Assembly (NCBI GenBank): GCA_038087875.1
Contig: CM075987.1
Coordinates: 16,866,001 to 16,930,000, forward strand
Reading direction: 5' to 3'
Length of the DNA: 64,000 nt
DNA from: Malacoraja senta
Taxonomy: Eukaryota
How positions within the stretch are numbered: position 1 is the first letter of the stretch; the number at the start of each line of letters is the position of its first letter. The translations under genes were made by a program, and so were the position numbers. Positions 399 to 32,425 of this stretch are shown here, piece after piece. The notes beneath the pieces were generated by a model that saw nothing but the letters and a program-made list of their open reading frames with translations, ran no database searches and was not told where the DNA came from.

Positions 399-588
399 AG
401 ATGTGAGATGTGGAAAGCTTCAATGCAATGGTAAAGGCATATCACCAGCAATTGGTGGAAGAACCGAAAATGTTGTGTCCCAGTTCTCCAATAAAGGCCG
501 GAATATCGAGTGTTATGGAACATATTTCACAGGTGATGCTGAAGGCATTGATCTGGTGGCAGATGGCACTCCCTGCGGTTTGGGAAAG
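399..588 (+). CDS. ADAM-family gene exon: C-terminal part of the cysteine-rich domain
   Basis: Acceptor ttttcctgcAG (397-398) and donor AAG|GTaatt (589). The 190 nt read DVRCGKLQCNGKGISPAIGG...ECYGTYFTGDAEGIDLVADGTPCGLGK, with the CGKLQC and GTxCGxGK motifs of ADAM cysteine-rich domains. Resembles ADAM12/15/19/33; the paralog cannot be resolved by eye. Confidence 0.95.
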
Positions 589-784
589 GTAATTCTCCTC
601 AAGGCATAAAAACACCGTATTTGCGGACATTGCAAATTGTGTCTGATTTGGTCTCAGACCCAGATTTCCCAGTTCTCAGTCCGTAGCTTCATAGGTTAAT
701 GCAAGGTGCATGATCAGGTGCTGATCTGAGTACTTATTAAATGTGGTGAGGCTTCCTTCCTCAATCACACCGTCAGCATGAAAA

Positions 785-3868: not shown

Positions 3869-3946
3869 GCGTGCTTCAACACCATTTGTCGTGGCGTGGC
3901 TGGTTTTGGTGTCTCCAAGTGTAACAAGCATTGCAATGGCCATGGG
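3869..3946 (+). CDS. ADAM-family gene exon: end of Cys-rich domain and start of EGF-like domain
   Basis: Acceptor ctttcatccttcAG and donor GGG|GTaaga. 78 nt, phase 0-0, reading ACFNTICRGVAGFGVSKCNKHCNGHG, in frame with the previous exon (GK|AC). Confidence 0.95.
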
Positions 3947-8631: not shown

Positions 8632-8746
8632 GTATGTAACAATAATGACGCATGCCACTGTGACCCAGGCTGGGCACCCCCAAATTGCACCACCGCAGGA
8701 GAAGGTGGCAGTGTGGACAGTGCAACATGGTTTTCACAGCAGCCAG
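8632..8746 (+). CDS. ADAM-family gene exon: EGF-like domain
   Basis: Acceptor tttattgttacattAG and donor CAG|GTgagt. 115 nt, phase 0-1, reading [38 protein letters not shown], the typical ADAM VCN..CHC..GWAPPxC....GGSxDS signature. Confidence 0.96.
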
Positions 8747-10444
8747 GTGAGTGTCTGACAATGGCATTTTTGTCTGTAGAAAGACTATTGCTCTGCGCAA
8801 TCCCATTTGCAGCCTTTCCGACCTTAATTCAATGGAACGTGCAGAGCAGTGGCACAGCTGGTGGTGCTGCTGCCTCATAACTCCAGCAACACCTTCAGGC
8901 AGCGACTGACCTGAGATAGTGCAACATCGTGTTTCCAGAATCTCCATTTTATTTTAAAACATCATCAAGAGGATTGATGTGGACAGAGCAGTGGATGTTA
9001 TGGATGAACTTTAGCAAAGCCTTTGACATGGACCCACATGGAAAGCTTAGTCTGGTAGGTTAAATCACATAGATTCCAAGTGAGCTCATTGATTGGATTC
9101 AAAATTGCCTTGGAGGAAGGAGTGTTAAGGATAGTTGTGGAGAGTTGTGACGGATGGAGTGCCGCAGGAGTCACTGCTGGGTGCACTGCTGATTGTTAAT
9201 AAGTTAGTGATTTGGATAACAAATCTGCAGATGACTCCAACATTGTTATAGTGGACAGTGAGGAAGGATATAGAAACATAGAAAATAGGTGCAGGAGGCC
9301 ATTCGGCCCTTCAAGCCAGCACCGCCATTCATTGTGATCATGGCTGATCGTCCCCAATCAATAACCCGTGCCTGCCTTCTCCCCATATCCCTTGATTCCA
9401 CTACCCCTAGAGCTCAGATAGATATCTAGATTACAAGATATCTATGTTTACAAGATCTAGATCAGTTAGGAATGTGGGTCAAGGAATGGCAAATGAAATA
9501 TAACTCTGGCAAGTCTGAGTTGTCAAACCAGAGCAGGATTTAGACAATAGACAATAGGTGCAGGAGTAGGCCATTCGGCCCTTCGAGCCAGCACCGCCAT
9601 TCAATGTGATCATGGCTGATCATCCACAATCAGTATCCCGTTCCTGCCATCTCCCCATATCCCCTGACTACGCTATCTTTAAGAGCCCTATCTAGCTCTC
9701 TCTTGAAAGTATCCAGAGAAGAGGCTTTTTACACAGTAGATGGTGGAACTCTGAAGAGTGTTGCACAACACAGAGATCTGGGAGCATGGGTGCATTTCCC
9801 TGAACGTTGGACACTGTGGTTAAAAAAAGTGGTTTGGCACACTGGCCTTCATTGGGAAGGGTGTTGAGTACAAATGTTGGGATATTAGGATACATCAGTA
9901 CAAGTCGTTGGTGAGACCACACTTGGAGCACAGTGTGAAGTTCTGGTCGCCCAGCTACAGGGAGGATGTCATTAAGTTGGAAAAGGTGCAGAAAAGATTC
10001 ATCAGGATGTTACCTGGGCTTGCGAGCTTGAGTTATAGGGAGACATTGGATAGGCTTAGACTTTGTTCTTTGGAGCGTAAGAGGCTGATTGTTGACCTTA
10101 TTGAGGTGTACAAGACTATGAAGAGTATGGAATAAGTGCATGCTCATCAACCAGGGTAGAGGATTCTAAAACCCGAGGTCATGGGCTTAAGGGTTGAGGG
10201 AAGAGATTTAAGAGGGACCTCAGGCAACCTTTTTCATTCAGAGGGTAGTTACATCATGTTACAGCTGTATAAGTTGTTGGTGAGACCACACTAGGATCAC
10301 TGTGTGCTGTTCTGGTTGCCCATCTACAGGAAGGATATCATTATGTTGGAAAGGATGCAGAAGTGATTCACCAGGATAAGGTACAGAGAATTGTGAAATG
10401 CTGGCCAACCAGTACAGAGAGTTGGTAAATGCTCGTCAACGGAC

Positions 10445-11040
10445 ACGGATGATATCTTACGCGACTGCTTTGAGTCAGCTACTGGTCCGCATTCAGGGAT
10501 TCCGCGGCTAACCTGAATGAGTACGCCACTGCCATGACTGACGTCATCAGCAAGTGCGTGGAAGACTGTGTGCCGACGAAGTCAATCTGAGTGTTGCCCA
10601 ACTGGAAACCATGGATGAACCGCGAGGTACATTCACAGGTTAAGGCCAGGTCTGCTGCATACAAGTCAAACGATTCAGAGCTGTACAAGAAGGCCTGCTA
10701 TGATCTCCACAAAGCCATCAAGGATGCCAAGAGACATGAGTCCCAGTATAATCACTCGAACACACCGAGAATGTGGCACACTCTAAATACGATAACTGGC
10801 TACAAAGCAAGGTCAGGCAACATCATCGGTGATGGTGCGCCATCAAATAATAATGAGACGGAGTACAGGAAGGAGATTGAGAACCTCGAGTCCTGGTGTC
10901 GAGACAACAACCTTTCTCTCAATGTCAGTAAGACAAAGGAGATAATGATGGATTTCAGGAAGCGAAGTGGTACACATACCCCAGTTTGCATTGAGGACGC
11001 CAACGTAGAGATGGTTGAAAACTTCAAATTCCTAGCAGTC
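10445..11040 (+). mobile_element. Rex1/Babar LINE internal fragment (internally deleted)
   Basis: ORF 10591-11115 reads PNWKPWMN...NNETEYRKEIENLESWCRDNNLSLNVSKTKEIMMDFRK. Confidence 0.85.
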
Positions 11041-11399
11041 AAAAACTTCAAACGAATCAAGCCACCCGCAGTGTACAGATACAGGAAAAAGGGAATAATG
11101 TTTAGTGCAAGATAAAGTCCAATTAAAGATAGTTTGAGGGTCTCGATGAGGTAGATGATCATCTAAAATCAGTACCCCCTTCCTGCTTTTTCCCCATGTC
11201 CCTTGACTCCGTTAGCCCTAAGAGCTAAATCGAACTCTCTCTTGAGGTGCAGAGGTTTGTAAGAGTCATTGGAGACATGTCAAATGTCCACTTTCCTCTG
11301 GAGGTAGAGGTGTGGGTGGGTGTGCCCTCTTGGATGTCATTACAATGTGGTTTGGCCAAGACCGATTGTTGGTAATATTAAGGGCAAAGAACCATGACA

Positions 11400-11891
11400 C
11401 CTTCCGGAGGTGCCCTCCGGAGGATCCGCTGTGGCAGGCCCCTTCCGGAGGTGCTGATGATAAGCTGAGGCCGGACCCTCGCAGGCTGTAGCCCGAGCAT
11501 CGCGGGCGGGAGGTAGAGCCTTGCGAGTCGACGAAACCCCGCGGCCAACGGTGCCTGGGTGGGTGGAGCCCGCAGCTGGGGCCTGGCTCGGCGCCACGGA
11601 GGCATCCGGAGAGGGACCCTTCGGCGATAGTGGAGAGGTCGGAGCGGCAGTCGACCGACGGACGAGGACGGTCACGTGGAAGTGAAGACGCCGCTGCCGG
11701 GGGAATGAGCAAAGGTGAACCTGGCATGGGAAGACTGCCGTGAGGAGGGGGAGAACTAAGAGGGAGCTGGCACCAGGGTACTCTGTAACTTTGTAAGTGC
11801 CCTTTATGCGGGACTATTTGCATACTTTAGATATGCAAGCAAAGAATTTCACTGTGACTTGTCACGTGACAATAAAGTATTCAATTCAATT
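11400..11891 (+). mobile_element. CpG-rich non-autonomous retroelement with Rex1/Babar-like 3' tail, nested in a minus-strand Rex1 fragment
   Basis: 3' end aaagaatttcactgtgacttgtcacgtgacaataaagtattcaattcaatt resembles the Rex1 3' ends elsewhere in the window. Confidence 0.55.
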
Positions 11892-12593
11892 TCCACATCC
11901 ACACTATTGATGCTGATTGGGGTATGTTCTCCACCATGCCTCCTGACATTAAGGGAGAGGTTATCGTCCTGACACCATATTACTAAATTCTCTATCGCCT
12001 TCCTGTACTCTGTCTCATCATTGATAGTAATCTGGCTTCAGTTGGAGTTTTCAAGAGGGAGTTAGATTTAGCGCTTAAGGCTAAAGGAATCAAGGGATAT
12101 GGGGAAATAGCAGGAACGGGTTACTGATTTTAGATGATCAGGCATGATCATATTGAATGGCGGTGCTGACTCTGGGCTGGATGGCCTATTTTCTCTGTTT
12201 CTACCACAGTGGTGTCATCTGCAATCTTGCACATGGAGTTGCAGCCAACTTTGGCCGCACAGCCGTGAGTAGAGCAGGGGACTGAGAACGTATCCTTGTT
12301 GAAAATTCATGTTCATATTTACTGTGGAGGAGGTGTTGTCATCTATCTTTACTGATAGTGGTCTGTGGGTCAGACAGTCACCAACCTGGTGGCAGAGTGG
12401 GGGAGTTGCTGAGTCATAGGACCAGGTCGTTGGGAGATAAATTTGGATAGGATTATGGTGTTGACGGCAGGGATTACACATCTGACTATGAAAAACTTGC
12501 AACACTGAACATGCATTGATTGTGGATGTAGATTTTTTGTGACCTTGAGGTTGTTTGTTACTCCTTGCATTTTCATGTCCTTGCATTTCACAG

Positions 12594-12686
12594 CTGAAAA
12601 GTATGAACCTAAAACTCAAAAACCAACTGCTGTTATTGAGAATAATTTCATCTATCCTAAAGTAAGACCCACCAGTCCAGGATATG
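12594..12686 (+). CDS. Probable ADAM exon after the EGF domain (Pro/Thr-rich extension), symmetric phase 1-1
   Basis: Long polypyrimidine tract plus cAG acceptor and a perfect G|GTAAGT donor. 93 nt, open in the frame required by the EGF exon: (A)EKYEPKTQKPTAVIENNFIYPKVRPTSPGY. Sits in a non-repetitive island. Confidence 0.75.
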
Positions 12687-13015
12687 GTAAGTGAATTCTA
12701 TATGCTCCTTTCATTATCAGTAAGGAGGGTGAGGGAAGACCTGAAACAAGAGTATATAAAGTTATTGTTCATAAAGGCAAGAGATTGGATCCTGTTGACA
12801 TTCAAAGGGACCTGCATAACATTGGACTCAAGTAAATGAAAACTAACAATGTGGTGTGTTGGCCTTTATTGCAAGATGATCTGAATATAAAAGTGAAGAT
12901 GTCCCACTGCAATTATATAGGGTGAGGCTACACCTGGAATAAATGTACCGTTTTGATCTAAACCAAAATGATAGAAGGAATGCAGCAAAGATTCACCAGG
13001 CTGGTTGATAGAGTT

Positions 13016-13219
13016 TGTTTAGGAAGGAACTGCAGATGCTGGAAAATTGAAGTTAGACAAAAATGCTGGGGAAACTCAGCGGGTGAGGCAGCATCAATGG
13101 AGCGAAGGAAATAGGCAACGTTTTGGGTCGAAGAAGGGTTTCGACCCGAAACGTTGCCTATTTCCTTCGCTCCATAGATGCTGCCTCACCCGCTGAGTTT
13201 CTCCAGCATTTTTGTCTAC
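13016..13219. mobile_element. Penelope-like palindromic insertion with 15-bp TSD
   Basis: Near-perfect inverted arms span 13054-13218. TSD ctggttgatagagtt (13001-13015) and ctggttcatagagtt (13220-13234). Confidence 0.8.
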
Positions 13220-13779
13220 CTGGTTCATAGAGTTGTAGAGTTACCCAGCATGGAATTAGTTTCTTCAGACCAACTCGTCTGTGTTGATTAAGTGCCTTCC
13301 CCAGTTTGTCCCAATTGAACCATATCTTCCTAAACCTTTTCTATCCATGAAGCTGCCAAATGTCTGTTAAATATTTTAACTGTACCCACCTCTCCCACTT
13401 CCTCTGGCAGCTCAATCCCTCTGTAAGTAGAACCCTTTAAACCTTCCCCTTTAACCCTAAACCAATAGCCTCTAGCTTGAGATTTCCCTCCCCCGTGAAA
13501 GGTACCATGGCTATGTGCATGATATTAGAAACCTCCAACAAGAACGGCCCTCGCCTATCCAGTCTCTCCTTATATCTCAGATCCGACAATATCCTTGTGA
13601 AACTAATCTGCACTCTCTATAGCTTAATCACATCCTATAGCATTGTGACCAGTGCTGTACATAATACTCCGTGTGAATTCTGACCAACATCTTGTTTGGG
13701 GGAGGAGCGGGTGGAGGGCAGGATCCAATACTGAGTAAGGCAGGTGAGAGGCTGGGAAGTTGGTATGGAAGATAATGAA

Positions 13780-15370
13780 ATAAAGTTCATTGGACAGGAT
13801 AGGCAGGAACACAGCAGAGAGCGAGACAGGACACTTGGATTGAATTGCATTTATTTTAATACCAGAGGTCTGACAGGTAAAGCAGATAAATTCAGGATGT
13901 GGATAGGCACGTATGACTGGGATATTGTAGCCATTGCGGAAGGACTGAACTGGCAGCTTCATGTTCCAGGGTATACGTATTACAAGTGAGATAGAGTTGG
14001 GGATAAAAGAGGAGGGGGTGTTGCTTTATTGATTAAGGAGCATATCACGGCAGTAGTCCAACTGGTGAAGTGAGAAATAAATGGGATCACATTGTTGGGA
14101 GGGTATTATAATTAGAAGAACAAATATGCCAGGATATTACATGCAGCTGCAAGACCAATAAGGTTGTCATAGTAGGTGATTTTAACTTCCCCCCAAAAAG
14201 ACTGGGACTGTCTTAGTGCCAAGTATTTAGCTGGGGTTGGAACTTGTCAAATGTGTGCAGGAAAGTTTCCTCCTGAAGACAATATGTAGAGGGCCCTACA
14301 AGGGAGAGAGCAAAGCTTGATCTCTTAAAAAATCGGAAATAATAAGTTTCTGTAATCGAGCCTTATGGAACCAGCAACCTTTAAGCTAAAGTTCCGTTAG
14401 CATTAAGATAGTTATGGATAAAGACAGGGCAGGCCCACAAATTAAAATTCTGCATTGGGGAACAGCGCCAACTTTGATGGTATTGGTCATAGAGTCTTAC
14501 AGCATGGAAACAGGCCCTTCGGCCGAACTTGCCCACACCGGCCAACTCTAAATCTAAACTCGAAATGCGACCTCACCAATGTCTTATACAACTGCAACAT
14601 GACCTCCCAATTTCTGTACTCAATTTTCTGATTGATGAAGGCCAAAGTGATGAAAACCCAAACATCTCCAAGTTTGCGGATGACACAAAGCTGGGTGGCA
14701 GTGTGAGTTGCAATGAGGATGCTATGAGGCTGCAGGGTGACTTGGATAGGTTGGGTGAGTGGGCAGATGCATGGCAGATGCAGTATATTGCGGATAAATG
14801 TGAGGTTATCCACTTTAGTGGCAAGAACTGGAAGGCAGATTATTATCTGAATGGTGTCAGATTAGGAAAAGGGGAGGTGCAATGTGACCTGGGTGTGCTT
14901 GTACATCAGTCATTGAAAGTAAGCATTCAGGTACAGTTGAAGGTAGACAGGGCCCTAGTGAGACTGCACCTGGAGTTGTACAGGGCCCTGGTGAGACTGC
15001 ACCTGGAGTATTGTGTGCAGTTTTGGTCTCCTAATTTGAGGAAGGACATAATTGTTATTGAGGTAGTGCAGCGTAGATTCACCAGGTTAATTCCAGGGAT
15101 GGCGGGACCTACATATTATGAAAGAATGGGTCAACTGGGCTTGTATTTACTGGAATTTGTGAATCTGTGGAATTCTCTGCCACAGAAGGCAGTGGAGGTC
15201 AATTCACTGGATGTTTTCAAGAGATAGTTAGATTTAGCTCTTGGGACTAACGAAATCAAGGGATATGGAGAAAAAGTAGGAATGGGGTACTGATTTTGGA
15301 TGGTCAGCCATGATCATATTGAATGGCGGTGCTGGCTCAAATGGCCTACTCCTGCACCTATTTTCTATGT
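13780..15370 (+). mobile_element. CR1 endonuclease fragment followed by a CR1 RT C-terminal/3' fragment
   Basis: LNCIYFNTRGL..YDWDIVAIAE (APE domain). ORF 14529-15227 has ISKFADDTKLGG and [10 protein letters not shown]. Confidence 0.85.
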
Positions 15371-16709
15371 TGCTGTGACCACGCTATCTACCTGAGGTGC
15401 CACTTTCATCGACGGTGTACCTGCACTCCTCGATCCCTCTGCTCTGCAACATCCCCAGAGCTCTTCCATTCACTGTGTAGGTTGTGCCCATGTTATTGCT
15501 CCCAAAATGCAACACCTTTCTGATTCACCTCACATTTCTCTGTATTAAATTCCATCAACCATTCCTCACCTCACCTGGCAACAACCCACTAGACAGGAAC
15601 TTGCTCAAGTTGATTTGAGTAGGTTGTTTGTGGGCAAAAGAACGACCAGAAAATGGGATGGTTTTAAAAGTGTGATGACAAGAGGTCAGAGTTAAAGTGA
15701 AGGGCAAGGAAGGTGGGAGTAAGGAAGCCTCAATGACAAGAGAAATTAAGACTCTAGTCAGGATAAAAAGAAGGCATGGGACAGATGTAGGCAGCTGAGA
15801 TCAAGTATATCCCCGGAGGAGTTTAGGAACTGAGGAGCATACTTAACAAGGAAATAAGGAAGGCAAAAAGGGCGGCACAGTAACGCAGCGGAAGACTTGC
15901 TGCCTTACAGCGCCAGGGATCCGGGTTCTGACTAAGGGTGCTGTGTTTACGGAGTTTGTACTTCTCCCTGTGACCTCCCTTGTCAGTGTCCGCAGAATGA
16001 AATGATCCTGCACCTTCCGAATTATCGCCTGATATCGGTCTCTCTGGTCGAGCCTCTGCGCCAGGATTCGAGTCCCAGACCTGTCCGCCGCTTAGACTGG
16101 AAATGTCATAGGACATAATTGGTCATAAGTGATAGGCGTGGAATTAGGCCATTCGGCCCATCAAGTCCACTCTGCCATTCAATCATGGCTGATCCATCGC
16201 TCCCTCCGAACCCCATTCTCCTGCCTTCACCCCATAAACTCTGACACCTGTATTATTCAAGAATCTATCTATCTGTGCCTTAAAAATATCCACTGCCTTG
16301 GCCTCCACAGCCGTCTGTGGCAAATAATTCTTGGCCTCCACAGCCTTCTGTGGAAAAGGATTCCACAGATTCATCACCCCCTGACTAAAGAAATTTCTCT
16401 GCATCTCCTTCCTAAAAGAACGTCCTTTAATTCTGAGACTATGACCTCTAGTCCTAGACTTTCCCACTAGTGGAAACATCTTCACCACATCCACTCTATC
16501 CAAGCCTTTCACTATTCTCTATGTTTCAATGAGGTCACCCCTCATTCTTCTAAACTCCAGCGAGTACAGGGAATACAAGCCCTCTTGAAATAAATGCTAA
16601 CATTGAGTTTGCTTTCATTACTACCGATTCGACTTGCAGATTAACTTTTTGGGAACCCTGCACCAGCACTCCGAAGTCCCTTTGCTCCACAGATTTCTGG
16701 ATTCCCTCC

Positions 16710-18058
16710 CCATTTGTAATAAGGTGGATGAATTGAATGTGCAGTTAGTAGTTAAGGAATATGATATAGTTGGAATTACGGAGACATATCTCCAGGGTGA
16801 CCAAGTCTGGGAGCTAAACATGCAGGGGTATTCGATATTCAGGAAGGATAGACAGAAGGAAGAGGAGGTGGGGTGGCATTGCTGGTTAAAGAGGAGATGA
16901 ATGCAATAACAAGGAGAGACATTAGCTTGGATGCTGTAGAATCGTATGGGTAGAACTGCCAAATAGCCAAGGGCAGAAAACGGTTGTTGGAGTTGTATAC
17001 AGACCACTAAACAGCAGTAGGGAGGTTGGGGATAGCATCAAGCAGGAAATTAAGGATGCATGTAGCAAAGGTACAGCAGTTGTCATGGGTGACTTTAATC
17101 TACATATAGATTGGCCCAACCAAATTGGTAACAGCGCTGAGGAGGAGGATTCCAGGAAATGTATACGGGATGGGTTTTTAAACCAATATGTAGAGGAACC
17201 GACTAGAGGACAGGCCATCCTAGACTGGGTATTGTGTAATGAGGAAGGATTGGTTAGCGATCTTGTTGTGCAAAGCCCCTTGGGCAACAGTGACCATAAT
17301 ATGGTGGACTTCTGCATTAGAATGGAGAGTGACATGGTTAATTCAGAGACGAGGGTCCTGAGCTTAAAGAAAGACTTTGAAGGTATGAGACGGGAATTGG
17401 CTATGATAGACTGCCAAATTATACTTGACGGTGGAGATGCAATGGCAAAGATTTAAAGATCGCAAGGATCAAAAAATTGTTCATCCCTGTGTGGCGAAAA
17501 AATAAAACTGGGAAGGCGGCTCAACCGTGGCTAACGAGAGAAATCGAGGATAGCGTTAAATCCAAGGAAGAGGCATATAAATTGGCCAGAAGAAGTAGCA
17601 AACCAGAGGACTGGGAGAAATTTAGAACTCAACAGATGAGGACAATGGGGTTAATTAAGAGGGGGGAAATAGAGCATGAAAGAAAGCTAGCGGCGAATAT
17701 AAAAACTGACTGTAAAAGCTTCTTTAGATTTGTAAAAAGGAAAAGATTAGTGAAAACAAATGTAGATCCTTTATAGTCAGAAAAAGGTGAATTTATAATG
17801 GGAAACAAGGAAATGGAACAGTTAAACGAGTACTTTGTTTCTGTCTTCACAAAGGAAGACACAAACAATCTCCCAGAAATACTAGGGGACCGAGGATCTA
17901 GTGGGAGGGAGGAGCTGAAGGGAATCCACATTATTCAGAAAATGGTGTTAGGTAAACTGTTGAGACTGAAGGCAGATAAATCCCCAGGGTCTGATGGTCT
18001 GCATCCCAGAGTACTCAAGGGGGTGGCCCTAGAAATCGTGGATGCATTGGTGATTTTT
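16710..18058 (+). mobile_element. CR1 ORF2 5' half (APE endonuclease and linker), frameshifted
   Basis: YDIVGITET, MGDFN, PLGNSDHNMV and KSPGSDGLHPRVLK. Confidence 0.9.
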
Positions 18059-19489
18059 CTATCCTGGAAAAAAGGTTCTGACAGACTACCATTTCTATGC
18101 CTCTCATAACTTTACATACTTGTATCAGGTCTCCTTGCAACTTCCGCTGTTCCAGAAATACCACACTAAGTCTTGCCAACCTCTCCTTACAGCTAATTCC
18201 CACCTATCCAGGCATTATTCTAATAACCCTGCTCTGCACCCTTACCAGAGGCTTCATTGGCGATCAGATCTGCACACAATACTTCAAATGCGACTTAACT
18301 AAATGTGACTTAACTAAAGTCGCTGTTTCATGATTTCCTGACATACTGATCAATGAAATCAAGCGTACCGCATTCCCTCTTTACCACTCTATCTACTTGT
18401 GTTGTCACTTTCAGGAGTTATAGACTTGGACCCCAAGATTCCTCTGTGCATCAATGCTGTTGAGGGTCATACCGTTAATTGTACATTTTTCCCTTACGTT
18501 TGACCTGCCGAAGTGCAACACCTCAGACTTGCTCGGATTAAACGCCACCTATTTCTGCAGCTGACCGATGTATACCTTGACTACTTTCCTCACAGTACAT
18601 GACCCCAGCAATCTTGCTGTTATCTGCAAACATACTAACCAACTTCCAAGTCGTTTATATATATCACAAACAGCAGAGGTCCCAGCACACATCCCTGCAA
18701 AACTCCACTGGTCACCGACCTACAGCCTGAAGATTCTCCTTCCACCACAGCCCTCTATCAGTAAGCCAGTTCTGAATCCATACGATCAAGTCTCTGTTAA
18801 TCCCGTATCCTGATTGTATTGATCAATAGTATTGTCAGGTTTGATTGGGTAGCATGCAAAACAAAGCTTTTTGCTGCACCTTAGTACACATGACACTAAA
18901 GCTAAACTTTTAAAGTTATGTTACAGTGCAAGTTGTTACACTTGAAATATTGAGTTCAGTTTTAGTCACCTTGCTATAGGGTGCCATTAAGCTGGGAAGA
19001 ATGCAGAGGAGATTTACAACGTTATTGCCAGGACTTGAGGGCCTGAGCTTCAGGGAGAGGCTGGGCAGGCTAGGACTGTCTTCCTTGGAGCACAGGAGGC
19101 TGAGGGATGATCTTAGAGAGGTGTATAAGATCATGAAGGGAATAGATAGGGTGAATGCAGAGTTTTTATCTGAGGTTGAGGAGAGGAGGGGAAAGGTAAC
19201 ATTTTCACACAGGGTAGTGGGTATATGGTATGAGCTGCCAGATGTGGTAGTTGAGCCAATGACAATATCTAAAAGAGATTTGGACAGGTACATAGATAGG
19301 AGCTACATGCGGGACAATTGGACTAATTTAAATGTGGCATTTTGGACAAGCTGGGCCGAAGGGCCTGTTTGCATGCTATATGACTCTAGCATAAATAATT
19401 TCTACTCACTTAGATGAGGGTAGTTCCAAAATCATGAAGAAATTCAACACCATCCAAGACGAATGACCCCTCTGCAGGCCACCCCGAAA

Positions 19490-21920
19490 GGCAAATTCCT
19501 CAATAGTGTTCAGGAGAGTTTTCTTAAACAGTATGTAGAGGCCCCCACACGTGAGAGGGCAATGCTGGATATAGTATTGGGAAATTGGGAAGGGCAAGTT
19601 AATGAAGTGTGTGTGGAGGAGCCTTTTGGGACAAGTGACCACAGTTCGATTAGGTTTCAGATCGTTATGGATCGGGACGGAGAGGGTCCACATGTTAAAA
19701 TGCTCAACTGGGGTAAGGCCAACTTTGAGGGTATGAGAGAAGGTCTCGCTCAAGTTGACTGGAGCAGGTTATTCGAGGGGAAAGGAACATTGGCCAAGTG
19801 GGATGTTTTTAAAAGTGTTCTGAAGAGAGCTCAGGATGTGTACGTCCCCGTTAGAGTGAAGTGCAAAGCAGGCAAATGTAAGGAAGCTTGGCTGACGAGG
19901 GATATAGAGGCATTGGTTAAGAATAAAAAGGATTGAAGGGACAGGTATAGGCAGCTGGGATCGTGCATCCCTGGAGGAGTTTTGGGAACTAAGGAGCAAA
20001 CTAAAAAAGGAGATCAGAAGAACAAAAAGGGGCCAGGAGATAGGTCTGGTGGGTAGCATAAAAGAAAATCTCAATAGATTTTATAAATACATAAGGGGGA
20101 AAAGGGTAACTAGAGAGAGAATGGGACCTCTCAGGACTCAAAGCGGTCACCTCTGTGTGGAGCCACAGGAGATGGGCAAGGTCCTCAATGGGTATATCTC
20201 CTCTGTATTTACCGAAGAGAAAGACAGTATGATGGAGGAAATTGGAGCAGTCACTGGAAGTCAAGTCAAGTCACTTTTAATTCTATAGCACATTTAAAAA
20301 ACAACTCTCGCTTTACATTGGTGGAGGTACTAACGTTATACAACAGTGGTTCATAGATTAAGTACATACATAAATACATACATATAGCCCTCCCTCAGAG
20401 GACGTCAAGAAAGGCTTGAGAGTAAAGATGAGTTTTAAGTCTCGACTTAAAAGAGTTGATGGAGGGGGCAGTTCTGATGGAGGGATGCTGCTCCACAGTC
20501 TAGGAGCTGCAACTGCAAAGGCGCAGTCGCCCCTGAGCTTATGCCTAGACCGCGGGATATTCAGTAACCTCAAGTCGGCCTATCTGAGGAACCTGGAGGT
20601 GGTGTGGTGGGTAAGCAGACTTTTGATGTAGATGGGGGCAAGCCCGTTAAGGGCTTTGTAGACATAAAGAAGGATCTTGAAATTTATTCGGAACCGCACA
20701 GGGAGCCAGTGGAGAGAGGCCAGAATCGGGGTGATGTGGTCCCTTTTTCGGGTGCCTGTCAGGAGTCTCGCTGCGGCGTTTTGGACCAGTTGCAGGCGGG
20801 ACAGGGAAGATTGGCTGATGCCAGTGTAAAGGGAGTTGCAGTAATCGAGGCAGGAGGAGATAAATGTGTGGATGATCTTTTCGAGGTCATCAAACTGGAG
20901 GAATTGTTTTATTTTAGCTATCGTCCGAAGCTGGAAGAAGCTAGCTTTTACCACGGCATTGACTTGTTTGTCAAATTTCAATGCTGAGTCAAATATTACG
21001 CCAAGGTTTTTGACGTGAGGTTTGAGTAGTGGGGTAAGGCTTCCAAGGCTGCCTGCTATCATTTTGATTGAGTCCGAGGGGCCGAGAAGGATGACCTCAG
21101 ACTTACTCTCGTTTAGTTGGAGGAAGTTCTGGGCCATCCAACACTTTATATCCTCGATGCAGTGGATAAGGTTAAGTAGATTTCATCGGTTTTGGGCTTC
21201 AGGGGGAGATAGAGTTGTGTATCGTCTGCATAGCAATGGAAGGAAATGCCGTGCCTTTGAAAGACTTGGCCTAAGGGGAGCATATACAAGGAGAAGAGAA
21301 TGGGGCCAAGAATGGAACCTTGTGGAACCCCACAGCAGAGGCTAGCTGGGGAGGAGAAAGAGTTGCCTATGTTAGTAGAGAATCTCCTACCTTTGAGGCA
21401 GGAGATGAACCAGCTCAGGGCAGTGCCATCAATACCAACCCCGTATCGGAGACGGTCAATTAGGATGGTGTGGTCGGCAGTATCAAATGCGGCTCTGAGG
21501 TCGAGAAGGAGCAGGATTGCACAGTCGCCGGAGTCAACGGTGAGAAGTAGGTCATTATGTACCTTCAACAAGCAGACTCTGTGCTGTGGTGGGCCCTGCA
21601 GGAAGTGTCATGAGAGCAGTCAGGGTTACTGTCGAGGAAGTACTGAAGGTACTGTCGTGTATGAAGGTGGACAAATCTCCAGGGCCTGATCAGATATATC
21701 CGAGGACATTGCGGGAAACTAGAGAGGAAATTGCGGGAGCCCTGGTTGAAATTTATGAGTCATCCTTAAATACAGGTGCCAAAGGATTGGAGGGTGGCAA
21801 ATGTGCCTCTTTTCAAGAAGGGCTGCAGGGAAAGTGCTGGGAACTAGCCGGCGAGCTTAACATCTGTAGTTGGAAAGTCATTAGAGAATATACTGAGGGA
21901 TAGGATATACAGGCATTGGG
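19490..21920 (+). mobile_element. CR1 ORF2 fragment split by the L2 insertion
   Basis: ORFs 19463-19936 and 20049-20288 (..EEIGAVTGS) resume at 21601 ([22 protein letters not shown]). Confidence 0.9.
20262..21600 (-). mobile_element. L2 LINE, 5'-truncated, with TSD
   Basis: RT motifs [38 protein letters not shown] and LHWLPV. (GACTT)n tail. TSD ggaagt at 20256-20261 and 21601-21606. Confidence 0.93.
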
Positions 21921-21999
21921 ACATTGTTGGCCGGTGTGGGCAAGTTGGGCCGAAGGGCCTGTTTCCACACTGTATTAATCTATGACTCTAGGCTGCGGT

Positions 22000-22892
22000 T
22001 GTGCATTATCTTCAAATTATACTCGGCATCTTGCAAACTTTTCCCACGCATTTCTGCAGACGTTCTTAGAAACGTTCTTTCTTCCAACATTAGGTTATTT
22101 GGTGATCATGCTGCGCTCCATTCCATGGTCAACTCTCGAGCAAATGAAGCAGCCCGTGGCTGCATGCAGCAAGACCTAGACAGGCACAGTGGAATATCAC
22201 TGCATATCGCCTTCCCTTCTACACACACCATCCTGGAAATGTGACTTCATAATTGCTGTTACTTGATCAGCACTGGGTCTATATCCTGGAACTCACTCAG
22301 CAGCAGAAGGTTAGCAGGAGCAGTTGAAGAATATAGTTCACCCCACCTTTATAGACAAAAGACAATAGGTGCAGGAGTAGGCCATTTGGCCCTTTGAGCC
22401 AGCACCGCCATTCAATGTGATCATGGCTGATCATCCACAATCAGTAACCCGTTCCTGCCTTCTCCCCATATCCCCTGACTGCTATTTTTAAGAGCCCTAT
22501 CTAGCTCTCTCTTGAAAGCATCCAGAGAACCTGCCTCCACCGCCCACTGAGGCAGAGAATTCCACAGACTCACCACTCTCTGTGAGAAAAAGTGTTTCCT
22601 CGTGGCTTACTCCTTATTCTTAAACTGTGGCCCCTGATTCTGGACTCCCCCAACATCGGGAACATGTTTCCTGCCTCTAGCGTGTCCAAGCCCTTAACAA
22701 TCTTATATGTTTCAATGAGATCCCCTCTCATCCTTCTAAACTCCAGAGTGTACAAGCCCAGCTACTCCATTCTCTCAGCATATGACAGTCCCGCCATCCC
22801 GGGAATTAACCTTTGCAAGAGTAAATGGGGATGGGCAATAAATGCTGCCCTTGGAAACACCTTCTAAATCCTGAAAATGAATAATAAAATAA
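22000..22892 (+). mobile_element. Old CR1-group LINE 3' remnant interrupted by a young minus-strand CR1 3' piece (about 22350-22812)
   Basis: Tail gggatgggcaataaatgctg...tgaaaatgaataataaaataaa. The inner piece has the RRMRGDLIETYKI motif. Confidence 0.65.
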
Positions 22893-23445
22893 AGCCTGCA
22901 ATCATGACCAATCACAAGGTGGGAGAAGTGGGTGCAGTTACAATGTTTACATGGATAAGAAAGGTTTAGAGGGATAAAGACCAAAGCGGACAGATAAAGG
23001 TAGCTGAGGAAGATAGCTCAGTCGGCAATGCGAGTTGTGCCGATGGGCATGTTTCTATGCTGCATGAATCATTTGTACGCCAGCTGTAATTTCCTCCTCC
23101 AAATCAAGCACCATCATGGCCTGTGAAGTATTGGTATAGAAGTACTGCATAGAAGCCCCAGGACAGTAAGGCAACTCAATATTACCCTCTCAAGAGGAAA
23201 GGCTATTAAATTCTTCTCTCGTGAATGATACCTGTATCTATTTCTAGGAAATACAGCACCTTGTGTACCACGTACATTTGAGCAATGCCATTCCAGCATA
23301 AATGTGGACGTAATTAATTGCATTAAAATGTCATACAATCTGTGCCTGCTCCATCTGCATATTGTCAGTCAGATGGGTGTAGAATCTGTAGTTTGTCAAT
23401 AAGTGTTAGTGTAGTAATGTTTCAGGTGTTACTATTTCACTGCAG

Positions 23446-23505
23446 GTTTTAGAACCGGCACGACTACACCACAAATTTCGATAAAAGGCATGCATGAAGA
23501 ATCGG
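23446..23505 (+). CDS. Probable ADAM exon (Thr-rich), symmetric phase 1-1
   Basis: Acceptor actatttcactgcAG and donor G|GTaagg. 60 nt, open in frame: (G)FRTGTTTPQISIKGMHEES. Lies in a 1.4 kb non-repeat island. Confidence 0.65.
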
Positions 23506-24680
23506 GTAAGGAAACGCACCATAAAAACAGTTTCATAATTTCCAGGGAATTTCGATTTACAGTTTCCCATTGATCTGAGGGACGTTTTTGGCAGCAACAT
23601 TTCTAAAAAGTAACCATGATCTATTGTAATTAATTTCTGGTTGTTCAGATATCACTTTTCAAACCTTGAGTATTGAACGACACATTTCAAGATGCAAGCT
23701 CGGTGGATCCTGTGCTCATTACCTACACTGTTGTGTGCATCTGGAAGTCTTGCAATAAACCAGCTGCTGAAACAGGCAGTGTCCATCCCAGTGTGGAAAT
23801 GTTCCCAAACATAGCAATTCTTCATCAAGATGGCTGTTCATTTCAGTTTATGCTTCCAATGTTCGCAGAATGATGCTGATAATAGGACATTCTGACTTCT
23901 GTTTGTAGTTGCTATTGCACGTCACTTTTTCAATGCAGTGGGATGGAAGTTGAACCATACTCCAAGTACCCAGCTAATTTTGTGGCTTTATTTTTTGAAT
24001 GTTGCAAATGCTGGGTGGGCATATTTGGTTGTTAATGGTGGTAGGTGTTTCTGTTGTTGAAATAATTTCAGAGTTCTCTGTGTTAACCCTCAGTACTAAT
24101 GCCAGATGTTAGCCAGGCTTGTCATTTAGTGTAACAAAAGTATAAATAAGAAATCTGGAAAATATTCAGCATAAAAGCCAGGGTGTCAGGAGAGATAACA
24201 AATTAATATGTAGGGAAATTGACCCAACATCAGTCTGACAGCTCATCATTGTGAACCTCGTTGATCTTTAAGGGGCTCTATTTTCTCTCCAAAACTCTTT
24301 CCCCATTAATATACATAGACTCTCTTTGTATTATCTTCTATCTTATCTAGCAAAGATATCATATGCCTCTTTTTGTCCTCCTTTTGTGTACTCTTGCACC
24401 CTCCATACTACTCGAGGAGGATATTGAAAGCTGAACAGGTAAGAGGTTTAACTGGTAAGAAGGAAAATGTCAGGGCATGGGTTGGCATAGGAGACTGGGA
24501 TATTCTAGCCATATCAGAAACATGGCTGAGAGAAGGACTGGCAGCACAGTGCCCCAGGGTACAGATGGGTAGAGGTGCAGGTAAGAGGATGATGCCGGGT
24601 GGGGGAGGCTTCTTGATGAGGGAAAACATTACAACATTGCTTAGGGAATGATCAAATGTGGCTCTTTGGAGAGAAAATTG

Positions 24681-25520
24681 TAATAATAATAATAATAATA
24701 ATAAAAGCTTTATTTCAGACACAGGCCCATAGAACACATCACACAGTATAAGGAGATACAAAAATACATATAAAATTACATAATAGCCTATAAGATATAC
24801 AAGCTATTGCACCAATGCCGTCTTAGCCTAGAAGTGAATCTATAGCAGCTTTTCAGAGGGCTGACTAGGGCTTCAATTATGTGGTTCTCTGACTTATCCA
24901 GGCGACACATAAAACTAAACATCAGCTGTCTTAAGAGTGCCTCACAGGTTGGCACTCTAGTGGACACAAACAATTGACTGGCACTATGCCATCTAGGGAC
25001 ACGAAGTAGCAACCTCATTGCGTCATTGTATGCTACCTTGAGCCTCTGCATACTCTTTTTCTTATAATTAGACCACAATTGAGCAGTATATAACGGTGTG
25101 ATGTAGGTTCTGAACAGTGAACACTTCACAGAGTCAGAGCACATAGAAAACTTCCTTATAAGCATGTTAGCTTGAAGATAAATTTTACAGCGCTGTCGGT
25201 AGAGGTCTTTGTCATCCATCCAGTCATCGGATATGACATGCCCTAGGTATTTAATTTCCTCACACACAGCAAGAGGACTGTCTGACAAATAAAAGGTCGG
25301 AAAAGTTGATTTCCTGTCCTCAGCGCTTCTAACTATAATTATGTGGCTTTTCTTAGCGTTATACTTTATGTCATAATCAAGGCCATACTGAGAGCACACC
25401 TTCAGCATCTGCTGCAGCCCAACACTATATGGACAGAGCAGGACCAGGTCGTCTGCATACATAAGATGATTAACAATAGTGTTGCCCACAAGACAGCCAG
25501 TTTTTAACCTATTTAACTGA
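24681..25520 (-). mobile_element. RTE-X-like LINE, 5'-truncated, intact RT C-terminal ORF
   Basis: ORF 24788-25489 reads NHLMYADDLVLL, IKYLGHVISDD..DDKD and LFRTY.TPLY..QLW. (TTA)n tail at 24681-24703. Inserted in a CR1 endonuclease fragment. Confidence 0.8.
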
Positions 25521-26284
25521 GAATGAGAATGGACGAGTCAGGAGGAATTAGAGGTTGGAGTGTATGGAGACTGCTTAGAGTTGTAAGAATATTGGAGTCA
25601 TATTAATGGGATATTTTAACTTACCTAATATTGACCGGGTCTCGCATTATGCAAAGGGCTGGGATGGGGTGGAATTTGTTAAGAAATTTGTCAAGGAAAT
25701 TCCCTTGATCAATATATAAATATTGATTGGGGAAATATTGTAGGGAAGCTATTGGAGAGGATTCTCAAGGATAGGATTTAGTCCCATTTGGAAGAGATTG
25801 GATTAATTTGGGACAGTCAGCCTGGTACAAGGCAGTTCAAGTCTTACTAAACTGATCAAGTTTTTTGAGGAGGTGCGAACATGATCATAGAACAGTACAG
25901 CACAGGAACAGGCCCTTCGGCCCACAATATTTGTGCCAAACATGATACCTACTTATGATATCATATAATGATACCATTAACCTTTCCCTTGCTCACCATT
26001 ATAGCTATGCCCTCTAGTGTTGGGCATTTCCACTCTCTGACTGTCTACCCTAACTATGCATCTCCTCCATTAAGTTTCCTATCAACCTCAAGTTCCAAAG
26101 AAAACAATCAAATCTCTCCAACCTTTTCCTCTAGCTGCAACCCTCAAATGCAGGCAGCAGTCTAGTAAGCCTCCTCTACACCTCTCCAAAGCCACCACAT
26201 CCTTCTTGTAATGGGGCAACCAGAACTGCATGCAATACTCCAAATGTAGCTGAACCTCTCTCACAAAGGGAGCTGAGGGAATGC

Positions 26285-27200
26285 TCTGTGTTCTGTTGCA
26301 CAGAGACATGGCTCAGCCCCAGCTCCCCAGCCTCAGCCGTGCAGCCTGAAGGTTTCTCCATCCATTCTATGGACCGAACGCAAACATCTGGGAAAGGGAG
26401 AGGAGATGGCGTCTGCCTCATGGTCAACTCTTCGTGGTGCTCAGATATGGCAGTTCTGTCCAACTCCTGCTCTCCGCACCTGGAACATCTGGCGATGAAG
26501 TGCTGCTCCTTCTACCTCCCGAGAGAATTCACCTCCATCATCCTGACCGCGGTCTACATCCCACCCCAGGCAGACGTCCGTCTGGCACTGGAGGAGCTGC
26601 ACGCCTGCAAGCACCAGCCAGCATACCCCGAGGCGTTTACCACCATAGCCGGGGGCTTCAACAAAGCCAACCTGAAAAAATCACTCCCAAACTACCACCA
26701 ACATGTCTCCTACAAAACCAGAGGACTAAACACCCTTGACCACTGCTACACGACCATCAAGGATGCCTATCGCTCTGTCCCTCGCCCTCAATTCGGGAAA
26801 TCCAACCATTCAATGGTGCTGCTTCTTCCTGCATACAGGTAGCAACTCAAGAGCGCACCACCAGTGAGGATTGCACAGAGCTGTTCTGGGGAGGCAGAGT
26901 AACAACTACAGGTCCGCTTGGAGTCTGCAGACTGGGCAATGTTCAAGGACTCGGCAACAGACCTACAAAAACCTTCCGTGTAGTTCCTAACCAGAAGCCT
27001 TGGATTAACCAGGAGATCCGCATTCTTCTGAAGACCAGATCCTGGGCATTCAGGTCTGGTGACGCAGAGGTCTATAAGAAGTCCTGATACGACCTTGACA
27101 AGGCCATCAAAAAGGTCAAAAGGGACCTCCGCTCAAAGCTGGAGGATGAGACGTATGTTCGGCAACTGTGGCAGGACTTGAATGCCATCACCTCCGACAA
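26285..27200 (+). mobile_element. Rex1/Babar LINE APE-endonuclease fragment
   Basis: ORF 26288-26842 has TETWL, GDGVCLMVNSSWC, FYLPREF, AVYIPPQA and TLDHCY. Confidence 0.88.
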
Positions 27201-30200
27201 GGCCTCTTTTGGGGAAGGTGTGACCTGTACAGAAAGGACGGGTTGCACTTGAACCCAAGGGGGACCAATATCCTGGCGGGGAGATTTGCAAAGGCTACTG
27301 GGGAGACTTTAAACTAGAACGGTTGGGGGAAGGGACTCAAATAGAGAAAGTTGTAGAAAATGTGGGAGGCAGAGAAGGGAAGCACTCGGACCCAAAATGT
27401 AGGGGAGAAAGAAGAAAAAGAAAATAAACAGAGAATAAGTGATGGTGGGTTTCTTAAATGTGTATATTTTAATGCTAGGAGCATTGTAAGAAAGGTGGAT
27501 GAGCTTAGAGCCTGGATTGACACCTGGAAGTATGATGTTGTGGCAATCAGTGAAACGTGGTTGCAGGAGGGCTGTGATTGGAAACTAAATATTCCAGGAT
27601 TTCGTTGCTTCAGGGGTGATAGAATTGGAGGGGCAAGAGGTGGGGGTGTTGCATTGCTTGTCAAGGAAGATATTACAGCAGTGCTTTGGCAGGATAGATT
27701 AGAGGGCTCGTCTAGGGAGGCTATTTGGGTGGAACTGAGAAATGGGAAAGGTGTAGCAACACTTATAGGGGTGTAAATGTGGTTCAAAAGAAACTAATGG
27801 ACTATGGGTTAATAACTGGAAAAAAGCTAATTCTAAAATTTTGGAAGAAGGCTCCAATACCAACTATAAATATGTGGATTTCAAATATGTTTGAAACATT
27901 ACACCTAGAAGAGATAAGACTCCTCCTAGCAGGTAAACCAGATCACTTCCACCTGACGTGGTCTGCATTTATAGAATTATTACAAACATAGGGTGCAAAA
28001 GTACTTTAAAAAAAATTGAGGTCAGGTAAGGGGGGATGATAGTTGAAGAGTTGGTATGTCCCATTTACGTAATGCTCATAAAAATATTTGTTTCTCTCTT
28101 TTTCCTCTTTCTCTCTCTCTTTCTTTCCTAGGGTCTATTTCTTAACTCTTTTTCTTTTGTTTTTAATTTTGCTCTTATAGGGTCTTCGTCCTTTTTTGTT
28201 GTCACATTTCCTACACTTTCACTTTTTCCTTCACTTTCTTCTTTCTTTCAATCTTTTCCTTTTCTAGTGTAAAAAATAAATGGAGTACATTAATTGTAAG
28301 AAGATATAAATGACAAGTACTAATGTATGTGGTTGTAATGTAATGTACTTCTAATAAAATAAAAATTTAAAAAAAAACAAAAAAAAACACACTTATAGGG
28401 GTGTATTATAGACCGCCAAATGGGGAGCGAGAATTGGAAGAGCAAATATGTAAGGAGATAGCAGATATTAGTAGTAAGCACAAGGTAGTGATTGTGGGAG
28501 ATTTCAATTTTCCACACATAGACTGGGAAACACATTCTGTAAAAGGGCTGGATGGTTTGGAATTTGTAAAATGTGTGCAGGATAGTTTTTTGCAGCAATA
28601 CATAGAGGTACCTACTAGAGAAGGGGCAGTGCTGGACCTCCTGTTAGGAAATGAGACAGGGCAGGTGGCGGAGGTATGCGTTGGGGAGCACTTCGGGTCC
28701 AGTGATCACAATACCATTAGTTTCAATATAATTATGGAGAGGGTCAGAACTGGACCTAGGGTTGAGATTTTTGATTGGAGAAAGGCTAACTTTGAGGAGA
28801 TGCGAAAGGATTTAAAAGGAGTGAATTGGGACATGTTGTTTTATGGGAAGGATGTAGAAGAGAAATGGAGGACATTTAAAGGTGAAATTTTAAGAGTACA
28901 GAATCTTTATGTCCCTGTTCGGTTGAAAGGAAATAGTAAAAATTGGAAAGAGCCATGATTTTCACGGGAAATTGGACACTTGATTCGGAAAAAGAGAGAG
29001 ATCTACAATAATTATAGGCAGCATGGAGTAAATGAGGTGCTTGAGGAGTATAAAGAATGTAAAAAGAATATTAAGAAAGAAATTAGAAAAGCTAAAAGAA
29101 GGTATGAGGTTGCTTTGGCAAGTAAGGTGAAAGTAAATCGAAAGGGTTTCAACAGCTATATTAATAGCAAAAGGATAACAAGGAATAAAATTGGTCCATT
29201 AGAGAGTCAGAGTGGACAGCTATCTGCAGAGCCAAAAGAGATGGGGGAGATATTGAACAATTTCTTTTCTTCGGTATTCACCAAGGAGAAGGATATGGAA
29301 TTATGTGAGGTAAGGGAAACAAGCAGAGTAGCAATGGAAACTGAGATTCAAAGAACAGGAGGTGCGAACACTTTTGAAAAATATGAAAATGGATAAGTCT
29401 CCAGGTCCTGACAGGATATTCCCTAGGACATTGAGGGAAGTTAGTGTAGAAATAGCAGGGGCTATGACAGAAATATTTCAAATGTCATTAGAAACGGGAA
29501 TAGTGCCGGAGGATTGGCGTACTGCGCATGTTGTTCCGTTGTTTAAAAAGGGTTCTAAGAGTAAACCTAGCAATTATAGACCTGTTAGTTTGACGTCAGT
29601 GGTGGGCAAATTAATGGAAAGGATACTTAAAGATAATATATATAAGCATCTGGATAAGCAGGGTCTGATTAGGGACAGTCAACATGGATTTGTGCCTGGA
29701 AGGTCATGTTTGACTAATCTTGAACTTTTCGAAGAGGTTACTAGGGAAGTTGATGAGGGTAAAGCAGTGGATGTTGTCTATATGGACTTCAGTAAGGCCT
29801 TTGACAAGGTTCCTCATGGAAGGTTGGTTAAGAAGATTCAATTGTTGGGTATTAATGGTGGAGTAGCAAGATGGATTCAACAGTGGCTGAATGGGAGATG
29901 CCAGAGAGTAATGGTGGATGGCTGTTTGTCAGGTTGGACGCCGGTGACTAGTGGGGTGCCTCAGGGGTCTGTGTTGGGTCCACTGTTGTTTGTCATGTAC
30001 ATCAATGATCTGGATGATGGTGTGGAAAATTGGATTAGTAAGTATGCAGATGATACTAAGATAGGTGGTGTTGTGGATAATGAAGTAGATTTTCAAAGTC
30101 TACAGAGAGATTTAGGCCATTTGGAAGAGTGGGCTGAAAGATGGCAGATGGAGTTTAATGCTGATAAATGTGAGGTGCTACATCTCGGCAGGACAAATCA

Positions 30201-30880
30201 AAATAGGACGTACATGGTAAATGGTAGCGAATTGAGGAATGCAGTTGAACAGAGGGATCTAGGAATAACTGTGCATAGTTCCCTGAGGGTGGAATCTCAT
30301 GTAGATGGTAAAGAAAGCTTTTGGTGTGCTGGCCTTTATAAATCAGAGCATTGAATATAGAAGTTGGGATGTAATGTTAAAATTGTACAAGGCATTGGTG
30401 AGGCCAATTCTGGAGTATGGAGTACAATTTTGGTCGCCTAATTATAGGAAGGATGTCAACAAAATAGAGAGAGTACAGAGGAGATTTACTAGAATGTTGC
30501 CTGGGTTTCAGCAACTAAGTTACAGAGAAAGGTTGAACAAGTTAGGTCTTTATTCTTTGGAGCGCAGAAGGTTAAGAGGGGACTTGATAGAGGTCTTTAA
30601 AATTATGAGCGGGTTAGACAGAGTTGACGTGGATAAGCTTTTCCCATTGAGAGTAGGAAAGATTCAAACAAGGGGACATGACTTGAGAATTAAGGGACAG
30701 AAGTTTAGGGGTAACATTAGGGGGAACTTCTTTACTCAGAGAGTGGTAGCTGAGTGGAATGAGCGTCCAGTGGAAGTGGTGGAGGCAGGTTCGATTTTAT
30801 CCTTTAAAAATAGATTGGATGGGTATATGGACGGGAAAGGAATGCAGGGTTATGGTCTGAGTGCAGGTAGATGGGACTAG
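27200..30880 (+). mobile_element. Near full-length CR1 LINE (ORF1 esterase C-terminus plus ORF2 APE-RT), few disablements
   Basis: 27200-27317 reads FWGRCDLYRKDGLHLNPRGT (SGNH-esterase DxxH). ORF2 pieces are 27360-27775, 28401-28958, 28980-29396, 29362-30354 ([25 protein letters not shown]) and 30305-30880. Confidence 0.95.
27776..28388 (+). mobile_element. L1-clade LINE 3' fragment with poly(A) and 17-bp TSD, inserted in CR1 ORF2
   Basis: TSD acacttataggggtgta at 27759-27775 and 28389-28405. ORF end KKLILKFWK..IPTINMW..LEEIR..FHLTWSAFI resembles the fish L1 ORF2 C-terminus. T-rich 3' UTR, AATAAA and A-tail. Confidence 0.88.
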
Positions 30881-30899
30881 GGGGAAGTAATAAATCTCG

Positions 30900-32245: not shown

Positions 32246-32425
32246 TTTCTCCCATTTGCCTTTTGCTTCTGCTCTCGTTTTACAGCCCTCTGTCTCCTTG
32301 CATTGGTTCAATAGACAATAGGTGCAGGAGTAGGCCATTCGGCTCTTCGAGCCAGCACTGCCATTCAATGTGATCATGGCTGATCATCCCCAATCAGTAC
32401 CCCATTCCTGCCTTCTCCCCATATC

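Follow-up and report, generated by a model that had tools for sequence, protein, structure and literature searches.

What do two small exons encode that follow the EGF-like domain of an ADAM gene in the skate Malacoraja senta, at the point where a transmembrane (TM) exon would be looked for? The window, that is, the whole stretch of 64,000 nucleotides (nt) analyzed here, corresponds to C11:16866001-16930000 of its genome (C11 being its contig, GenBank CM075987.1) and holds five coding exons of a large ADAM gene on the + strand. An earlier description made from the letters alone, the sequence-only reading, had noticed exons of 93 nt and 60 nt behind the EGF exon. It took them either for a stalk that sets the distance of a sheddase from the membrane, with a length tuned by exon skipping, or for the tail of a secreted ADAM. 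According to our analysis, the gene very probably encodes a membrane-anchored ADAM of cartilaginous fishes only, in which the two exons open a symmetric stalk module of six exons and 166 residues separate the EGF-like domain from the TM helix. The earlier interpretation was half right: its symmetric stalk exons stand, its secreted form does not and its sheddase probably does not either. We regard the gene as a genuine variant, of moderate interest, within a known protein family. Automatic gene models of it already exist, often truncated and so far unremarked, and the NCBI pipeline names them "ADAM19-like" or "ADAM12-like".

Exons of the stalk and the membrane anchor

The coding exons of the gene inside the window are the following:

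399..589, + strand: ADAM exon, end of the cysteine-rich domain; enters in phase 2 and ends in phase 0; peptide DVRCGKLQCNGKG...GTPCGLGK
3869..3946, + strand: Cys-rich region (end) and EGF-like domain (first half); phase 0-0; ACFNTICRGVAGFGVSKCNKHCNGHG
8632..8746, + strand: remaining half of the EGF-like domain, then the first 19 spacer residues; ends in phase 1
12594..12686, + strand: stalk exon 1 of 6, 93 nt, phase 1-1; peptide AEKYEPKTQKPTAVIENNFIYPKVRPTSPGY
23446..23505, + strand: stalk exon 2 of 6, 60 nt, phase 1-1; peptide GFRTGTTTPQISIKGMHEES

The splice sites, lengths, phases and peptides that the sequence-only reading gave for the two small exons were all confirmed from the sequence and its translation. 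Exon 8632-8746 is bordered by ag/GTATGT...CAGCCAG/gtgagt, and both small exons have canonical splice sites (ttcacag/CTGAAAAG...GGATATG/gtaagt for the 93-nt exon, cactgcag/GTTTTAG...GAATCGG/gtaagg for the 60-nt exon; slashes mark exon borders). When five ortholog models were compared with the window by tblastn, they matched 12593-12688 (E 1.2e-14 Leucoraja, 8.8e-6 Pristiophorus, 3.8e-4 Narcine) and 23445-23531/23504 (E 2.4e-7 Leucoraja, 0.003 Pristiophorus). Because both exons are matched by orthologs, their frames are not due to chance, and the small exons code for protein in continuation of the ADAM frame, as had been claimed. Their description as Pro/Thr-rich is only moderately true; their 51 residues include 6 Pro, 7 Thr and 3 Ser.

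The upstream exons identify the gene. Exon 399-589 matches the "ADAM19-like" models of Leucoraja and Amblyraja with 100% identity; analyzed alone against Pfam, it gave ADAM_CR with an E value of 0.0046, under the gathering score. The E values of exon 3869-3946 with the orthologs (tblastn) range from 8e-14 to 6e-10, and exon 8632-8746 gave Pfam EGF_2 at 0.0036, under the cut-off.

Past 23505, the window gave zero tblastn matches to the downstream parts of the five ortholog models, which agrees with the earlier statement that it holds no TM exon. A search of the genome from which the window comes, with the Leucoraja model as query, located the downstream exons, which lie on the same contig and strand as the exons of the window:

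C11:16952118-186, + strand: stalk exon 3, 69 nt, phase 1-1; AVVKSGSSSRKKNAKTTTASPGR
C11:16958601-681, + strand: stalk exon 4, 81 nt, phase 1-1; AGPYGTRLVIKGGVIPSRRAPASGPVQ
C11:16968569-613, + strand: stalk exon 5, 45 nt, phase 1-1; VKFGNGKSFSSVSKL
C11:16983391-474, + strand: stalk exon 6, 84 nt, phase 1-1; VPAGSRSDQDEDTRKAASTDIMVSCAHT
C11:16997064-16997220, + strand: TM exon, 157 nt; GTPIWLMIFLVLILILLLVAFGLLTYYLRKETDN...

The six stalk exons (93, 60, 69, 81, 45 and 84 nt, 432 nt together) are every one in phase 1-1 and are scattered across about 122 kb, with introns full of transposons between them. When the exons from EGF to TM are joined, they read 704 nt and 234 codons without a stop. Position 23505 is followed by an intron of 62.6 kb, the first 40.5 kb of which (23506..64000, + strand) is within the window. 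Stalk exon 3 starts at C11:16952118, window coordinate 86118, 22 kb beyond the window end; the TM exon is not visible in the window because it lies 67 kb past that end. The small exons had been said to stand where the TM exon should be, but a TM exon exists at C11:16997064-16997220. As it lies downstream on the same contig, the tail of a secreted ADAM form is not the main reading.

A single TM helix follows the ectodomain, encoded outside the window. In the Leucoraja model AlphaFold predicts it at residues 406-435, in a block with a predicted local distance difference test (pLDDT) of 64-90. It is followed by a short tail of about 45 residues, which has no proline-rich motifs and carries a conserved SERSNLSENNP(S/T)V motif. 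The 11.5 kb that follow the TM exon did not reveal the last coding exon (FIESAS in Leucoraja). With mini-exons of 45-93 nt and introns of up to 62 kb, automatic skate and shark models truncate the gene.

Five proteins were retrieved when the Cys-rich exon served as query; they belong to Leucoraja, Amblyraja, Narcine, Mobula and Pristiophorus (a sawshark), and a further search added the ortholog of the chimaera Callorhinchus. The peptide of the 93-nt exon is present in all of these models (6/6). The 60-nt exon is present in Leucoraja, Mobula, Pristiophorus and Callorhinchus and absent in Narcine, these being the five models that extend to its position. The models of Leucoraja, Narcine, Pristiophorus and Callorhinchus show the same stalk, then ...VSCAHTGTPIWLM and a hydrophobic helix. 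In the Mobula model, which is fragmentary (354 residues) and has unrelated ends, stalk exon 3 is joined in frame to the TM exon.

Pfam analysis of orthologs P0006 and P0008 detected Reprolysin (7.5e-53), Disintegrin (4.2e-19), ADAM_CR (3.4e-26) and EGF_2 (1.2e-3), which is the ADAM domain order. The window itself carries the ADAM_CR-end and EGF exons only, with 100% and 93% identity to the ortholog models. The stalk had been thought to be restricted to a lineage, and its peptides were indeed found only in cartilaginous-fish models, in predicted ADAMs of skates, rays, sawshark and chimaera. A word-based search with the stalk alone returned 2 proteins, the query and the Leucoraja model; since it missed known orthologs, this search is weak evidence for lineage restriction.

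One junction was also seen in run X1 (12 million letters from a close relative, guessed to be RNA). Positions 1021-1115 of an intron-less contig of 3285 nt in this run correspond to window 12591-12685 and adjoin positions 1116-1228, which correspond to 8631-8743. The contig removes the intron at 8746^12594, with a 3-letter CAG ambiguity; it covers 113 letters on one side of the junction and 95 on the other. In this presumed RNA the EGF exon is therefore joined directly to the 93-nt exon. Among the X1 matches listed, no piece covers exons 23446-23505 and 3869-3946, and junctions 12686^23446 and 3946^8632 were not seen there. Runs X8 and X9 gave nothing, and X10 (probably DNA) gave mainly repeat matches. 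Both 12594-12686 and 23446-23505 are constitutive-looking coding exons.

Composition and conservation of the stalk

Measured from the last EGF cysteine to the TM helix, the spacer of 166 residues is composed of 23.5% Ser+Thr, 8.4% Pro, 13.9% Lys+Arg and 7.2% Asp+Glu. We propose that it would form a largely unstructured, Ser/Thr-rich and basic stalk, which would probably be O-glycosylated. Such a stalk would place a large distance between the membrane and the disintegrin, Cys-rich and EGF modules. No Pfam family matched the stalk and the ESM Atlas gave no usable match for it. AlphaFold2, run on the Leucoraja model with a six-sequence alignment, reached a mean pLDDT of 35.7, with the disintegrin domain below 50, and is confident for the TM helix only.

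Comparison of Leucoraja with the sawshark showed 17/31, 13/20, 19/23, 20/27, 10/15 and 11/28 identical residues in stalk exons 1-6, and 168/194 in the disintegrin and Cys-rich part. Toward the chimaera, stalk identity is lower still (6/27 in exon 4, 6/15 in exon 5). Some islands are conserved, namely ENNF(I/L)YPK, GTTTPQ, KTTTA-PGRAGP, V-KFGN and the juxtamembrane (V/T)CAHTGTPIWLM. From skate to chimaera, hydrophobic counterparts are found as TRLVIKGG / PRVIFKGT and VQVKFGNG / RAFKFANR.

As all six stalk exons are in phase 1-1, skipping any of them keeps the frame, so that the frame part of the earlier claim of skippable symmetric exons holds. This symmetry would permit length variants. In-frame skipping is a possibility that appears in two predicted models only (Narcine and Mobula), and these models were predicted across very long introns.

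Catalytic site and relationship to other ADAMs

The zinc motif of the gene lies upstream of the window:

C11:16817205-16817405, 49 kb upstream of the window: catalytic-site exon of this gene (locus L025); reads HGIGHNLGIEHD

The consensus HExxHxxGxxHD is not preserved in this genome, where the catalytic Glu is replaced with a Gly (longer reading LAHGIGHNLGIEHD). HGIGH is also found in all five of the remaining elasmobranch models in which the site is present (Amblyraja, Narcine, Pristiophorus, Scyliorhinus and Chiloscyllium), and the Callorhinchus ortholog has HEIGH. With Gly in elasmobranchs and Glu in the chimaera, the Glu was lost after the holocephalan-elasmobranch split. The HExxH glutamate acts as general base in metzincins. 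Because this residue is lost, the elasmobranch protein is most likely no protease; it would rather be a non-proteolytic ADAM of adhesion or receptor type. In PMC4550289, a comparable Glu-to-Gln change is described in ADAM15 of some species.

To compare the architecture with that of other ADAMs, spacer and tail lengths were measured on proteins from one homology search, with the TM called by a hydrophobicity test:

ADAM12/15-named proteins: 82/85 measurable; EGF-to-TM spacer 12-21 residues; cytoplasmic tail 134-236 residues
Clade of this gene: 5/8 models measurable; spacer 86-163 residues; tail 42-79 residues
Chondrichthyan "ADAM12-like" paralogs: 15/29 measurable; spacer 23-182 residues; tail 32-72 residues

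The premise that the TM closely follows the EGF domain in membrane ADAMs is borne out by the first of these groups. ADAM12 and ADAM15, of the meltrin group, are the best non-chondrichthyan matches to the gene (40-44% identity) and share with it the order pro, reprolysin, disintegrin, ADAM_CR and EGF, together with the RxKR furin-type site before the catalytic domain, which is retained in the ortholog models. Meltrin-type proteins (ADAM12/15/19/33) have a long proline-rich cytoplasmic tail with SH3-binding motifs. The gene differs in its spacer, which spans 137-163 residues in the full models and 166 in this genome instead of a TM within about 20 residues of the EGF domain. It also differs in its tail (42-58 residues in the full models, no PxxP visible), in the Glu-to-Gly change of elasmobranchs and in its position, in a separate long-branched clade of a quick tree.

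This quick maximum-likelihood tree contained 44 rows of ADAM12/15-named and chondrichthyan proteins, with no ADAM19, 33, 8, 9 or 28. The clade of this gene (6 rows including the chimaera) has a long stem and a Shimodaira-Hasegawa-like approximate likelihood-ratio test (SH-aLRT) value of 100. Its sister is an expansion of "ADAM12-like" paralogs (24 rows, support 100), and both stand apart from the ADAM12/15-named group. The tree supports a distinct chondrichthyan clade, with a placement relative to ADAM12/15-named proteins only. In the same tree, teleost "ADAM12" and "ADAM15" names intermix in one clade (proteins P0040-P0125; for example, Labeo "ADAM12" with Danio "ADAM15") and the sawshark "ADAM15" groups with shark ADAM12. 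Automatic names are therefore unreliable for orthology.

Several "ADAM12-like" genes form a paralog cluster on both strands of the same contig (C11:17466000-17772000), 0.5-0.9 Mb downstream. These paralogs resemble the gene in their short tails and enlarged spacers. They differ in keeping HExxH and in having stalks made of Thr-rich tandem repeats of about 16-22 residues. In other species the repeat stalks of these paralogs vary widely in length; a Mustelus model, for example, has at least 4 repeats of about 19 residues. Homology of the skate stalk to these repeat stalks was considered and rejected. Smith-Waterman comparison with 200 shuffles gave no signal, with only 1/32 comparisons in which at most 5 of the 200 shuffles reached the score, and no similarity was found beyond composition. 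The stalk exons of the nearest paralog were not found within 26 kb after its EGF exon. In the prodomain, the cysteine-switch region of the ortholog models P0006, P0005 and P0009 reads C-S-S-G/C-S-L-R, and that of the paralogs C-G-V (for example, RCGV in P0012).

Two other groups of proteins offer likenesses. Non-catalytic ADAMs (ADAM11/22/23, ADAM7) also retain the ADAM ectodomain and have lost the HExxH glutamate, which implies an adhesion or receptor role. They are not close by sequence, none being among the best 120 matches to this gene, and to our knowledge they have no long stalk. The O-linked sugar domain of LDLR/VLDLR and the mucin-like stalk behind the EGF modules of thrombomodulin/CD93-type proteins are Ser/Thr-rich and encoded by skippable exons. 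Like the skate protein, they combine EGF module(s), a Ser/Thr-rich spacer, a TM and a short tail, with frame-neutral exons that permit length variants. They differ in being unrelated proteins; the skate stalk is made of six mini-exons and contains less Ser/Thr/Pro than classical mucin domains.

ADAM biology assumes a compact ectodomain near the membrane, and the distance from head to membrane is thought to matter for substrate choice. The genes described here form a natural ADAM family with stalks of about 25 to 180 residues, one member of which lost the catalytic glutamate after the chimaera-elasmobranch split. They offer a comparative system for the effect of stalk length and for how a protease becomes a non-enzymatic receptor, and the exact exon coordinates allow repair of the truncated skate and shark gene models. 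Our search of the full-text literature found no description of a long-stalked ADAM or of this chondrichthyan clade. The accessible part of PMC4550289 samples the elephant shark for Adam9 and Adam9-like only.

Alternative explanations and the content of the introns

Soluble splice forms exist for ADAM12, ADAM9 and ADAM28, and the small exons could belong mainly to a secreted isoform, with transcripts that end before the membrane anchor. The Amblyraja model P0005, which stops after the peptide of the 93-nt exon and continues with an unrelated tail of 12 residues (VFHLYPQGLYIF), fits this explanation. So do the "ADAM12-like" paralog models, 9/29 of which have no TM by the hydrophobicity test, so that soluble forms may be common in the family. 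However, the alternative Amblyraja tail is encoded nowhere in the window (no frame, with up to 4 mismatches allowed), four models continue via four more stalk exons into the TM helix, and this genome has all the corresponding exons intact, in phase and on a single strand. Truncated models are moreover expected with introns of up to 62 kb. We consider a mainly secreted isoform very improbable. The reading that the earlier description preferred, a stalk that sets the distance for an active sheddase and whose length is tuned by regulated exon skipping, is very improbable in our view. It draws on the phase 1-1 of all six stalk exons, on the Narcine model without the 60-nt exon, on the in-frame jump of the Mobula model and on HEIGH in the chimaera ortholog, from which the ancestral protein may have been active. 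Yet both "skipped" forms are automatic predictions, the Mobula one a fragment, and Gly occupies the catalytic Glu position in this genome and in the five elasmobranch models. With the catalytic Glu missing, a sheddase at tunable distance is unlikely here, and the sheddase of the sequence-only reading is doubtful.

Several observations also speak against the preferred reading, a membrane-anchored ADAM on a long unstructured stalk. Junction 8746^12594 is the only one seen, in a run of presumed, not recorded, RNA nature, and a processed retrocopy in DNA could in principle yield the same contig. Inclusion of exon 23446-23505 was deduced from four predicted protein models, with the Narcine model lacking it, and the early end of the Amblyraja model makes a short secreted isoform possible. 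The loss of proteolysis, most likely as it is, was deduced from what is known of the HExxH glutamate in metzincins. The stalk has only 32% Ser+Thr+Pro, no tandem repeats and no N-glycosylation (N-x-S/T) sequons. Hydrophobic stretches are conserved in it, among them TRLVIKGG and VQVKFGNG, so that some of the stalk may fold instead of being mucin-like, and with the mean pLDDT of 35.7 AlphaFold says nothing on its disorder. These features lead to a further alternative, in which the stalk includes a small module that folds or mediates interactions, the candidates being exons 4 and 5 and the juxtamembrane Cys motif; its role can be compared with that of the membrane-proximal and CANDIS segments of ADAM17. 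The islands conserved from skate to chimaera, the alternating hydrophobic motifs, the nearly invariant (V/T)CAHTGTPIWLM near the membrane and the only moderate Ser+Thr+Pro content are consistent with it. On the other side, there is no Pfam match, no Atlas lead and no confident structure, and chimaera identity is low in the two candidate exons. We regard such a module as rather unlikely, though the least so of these alternatives. A bolder proposal, which we find doubtful, sees a chondrichthyan ADAM subfamily with an evolvable stalk, built from symmetric mini-exons here and from Thr-rich tandem repeats in the sister clade. The protein would then be a pseudoprotease receptor, a disintegrin/Cys-rich head on a long tether, with a reach set by regulated in-frame skipping and with the juxtamembrane Cys and hydrophobic islands as a new interaction element.

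The part of the 62.6-kb intron that falls within the window consists of transposable-element remains: reverse transcriptases of the long interspersed nuclear element (LINE) type, a pol frame of a long terminal repeat (LTR) element and a Tc1-type transposase. They are located as follows:

Window 45274-47547, with 47504-48229, - strand: LTR-retrotransposon pol remnant, open frame of 757 residues
Window 29332-30354 (+), 32334-34667 (+), 24788-25537 (-) and 54565-55221 (+): LINE-type reverse-transcriptase frames and a Tc1/mariner-type transposase frame (HTH_Tnp_Tc3_2 + DDE_3)

The introns of this ADAM gene are largely transposon debris. The pol remnant contains reverse-transcriptase, RNase H, integrase zinc-binding and integrase core domains and coincides with a GC-rich stretch at 46-48 kb of the window.

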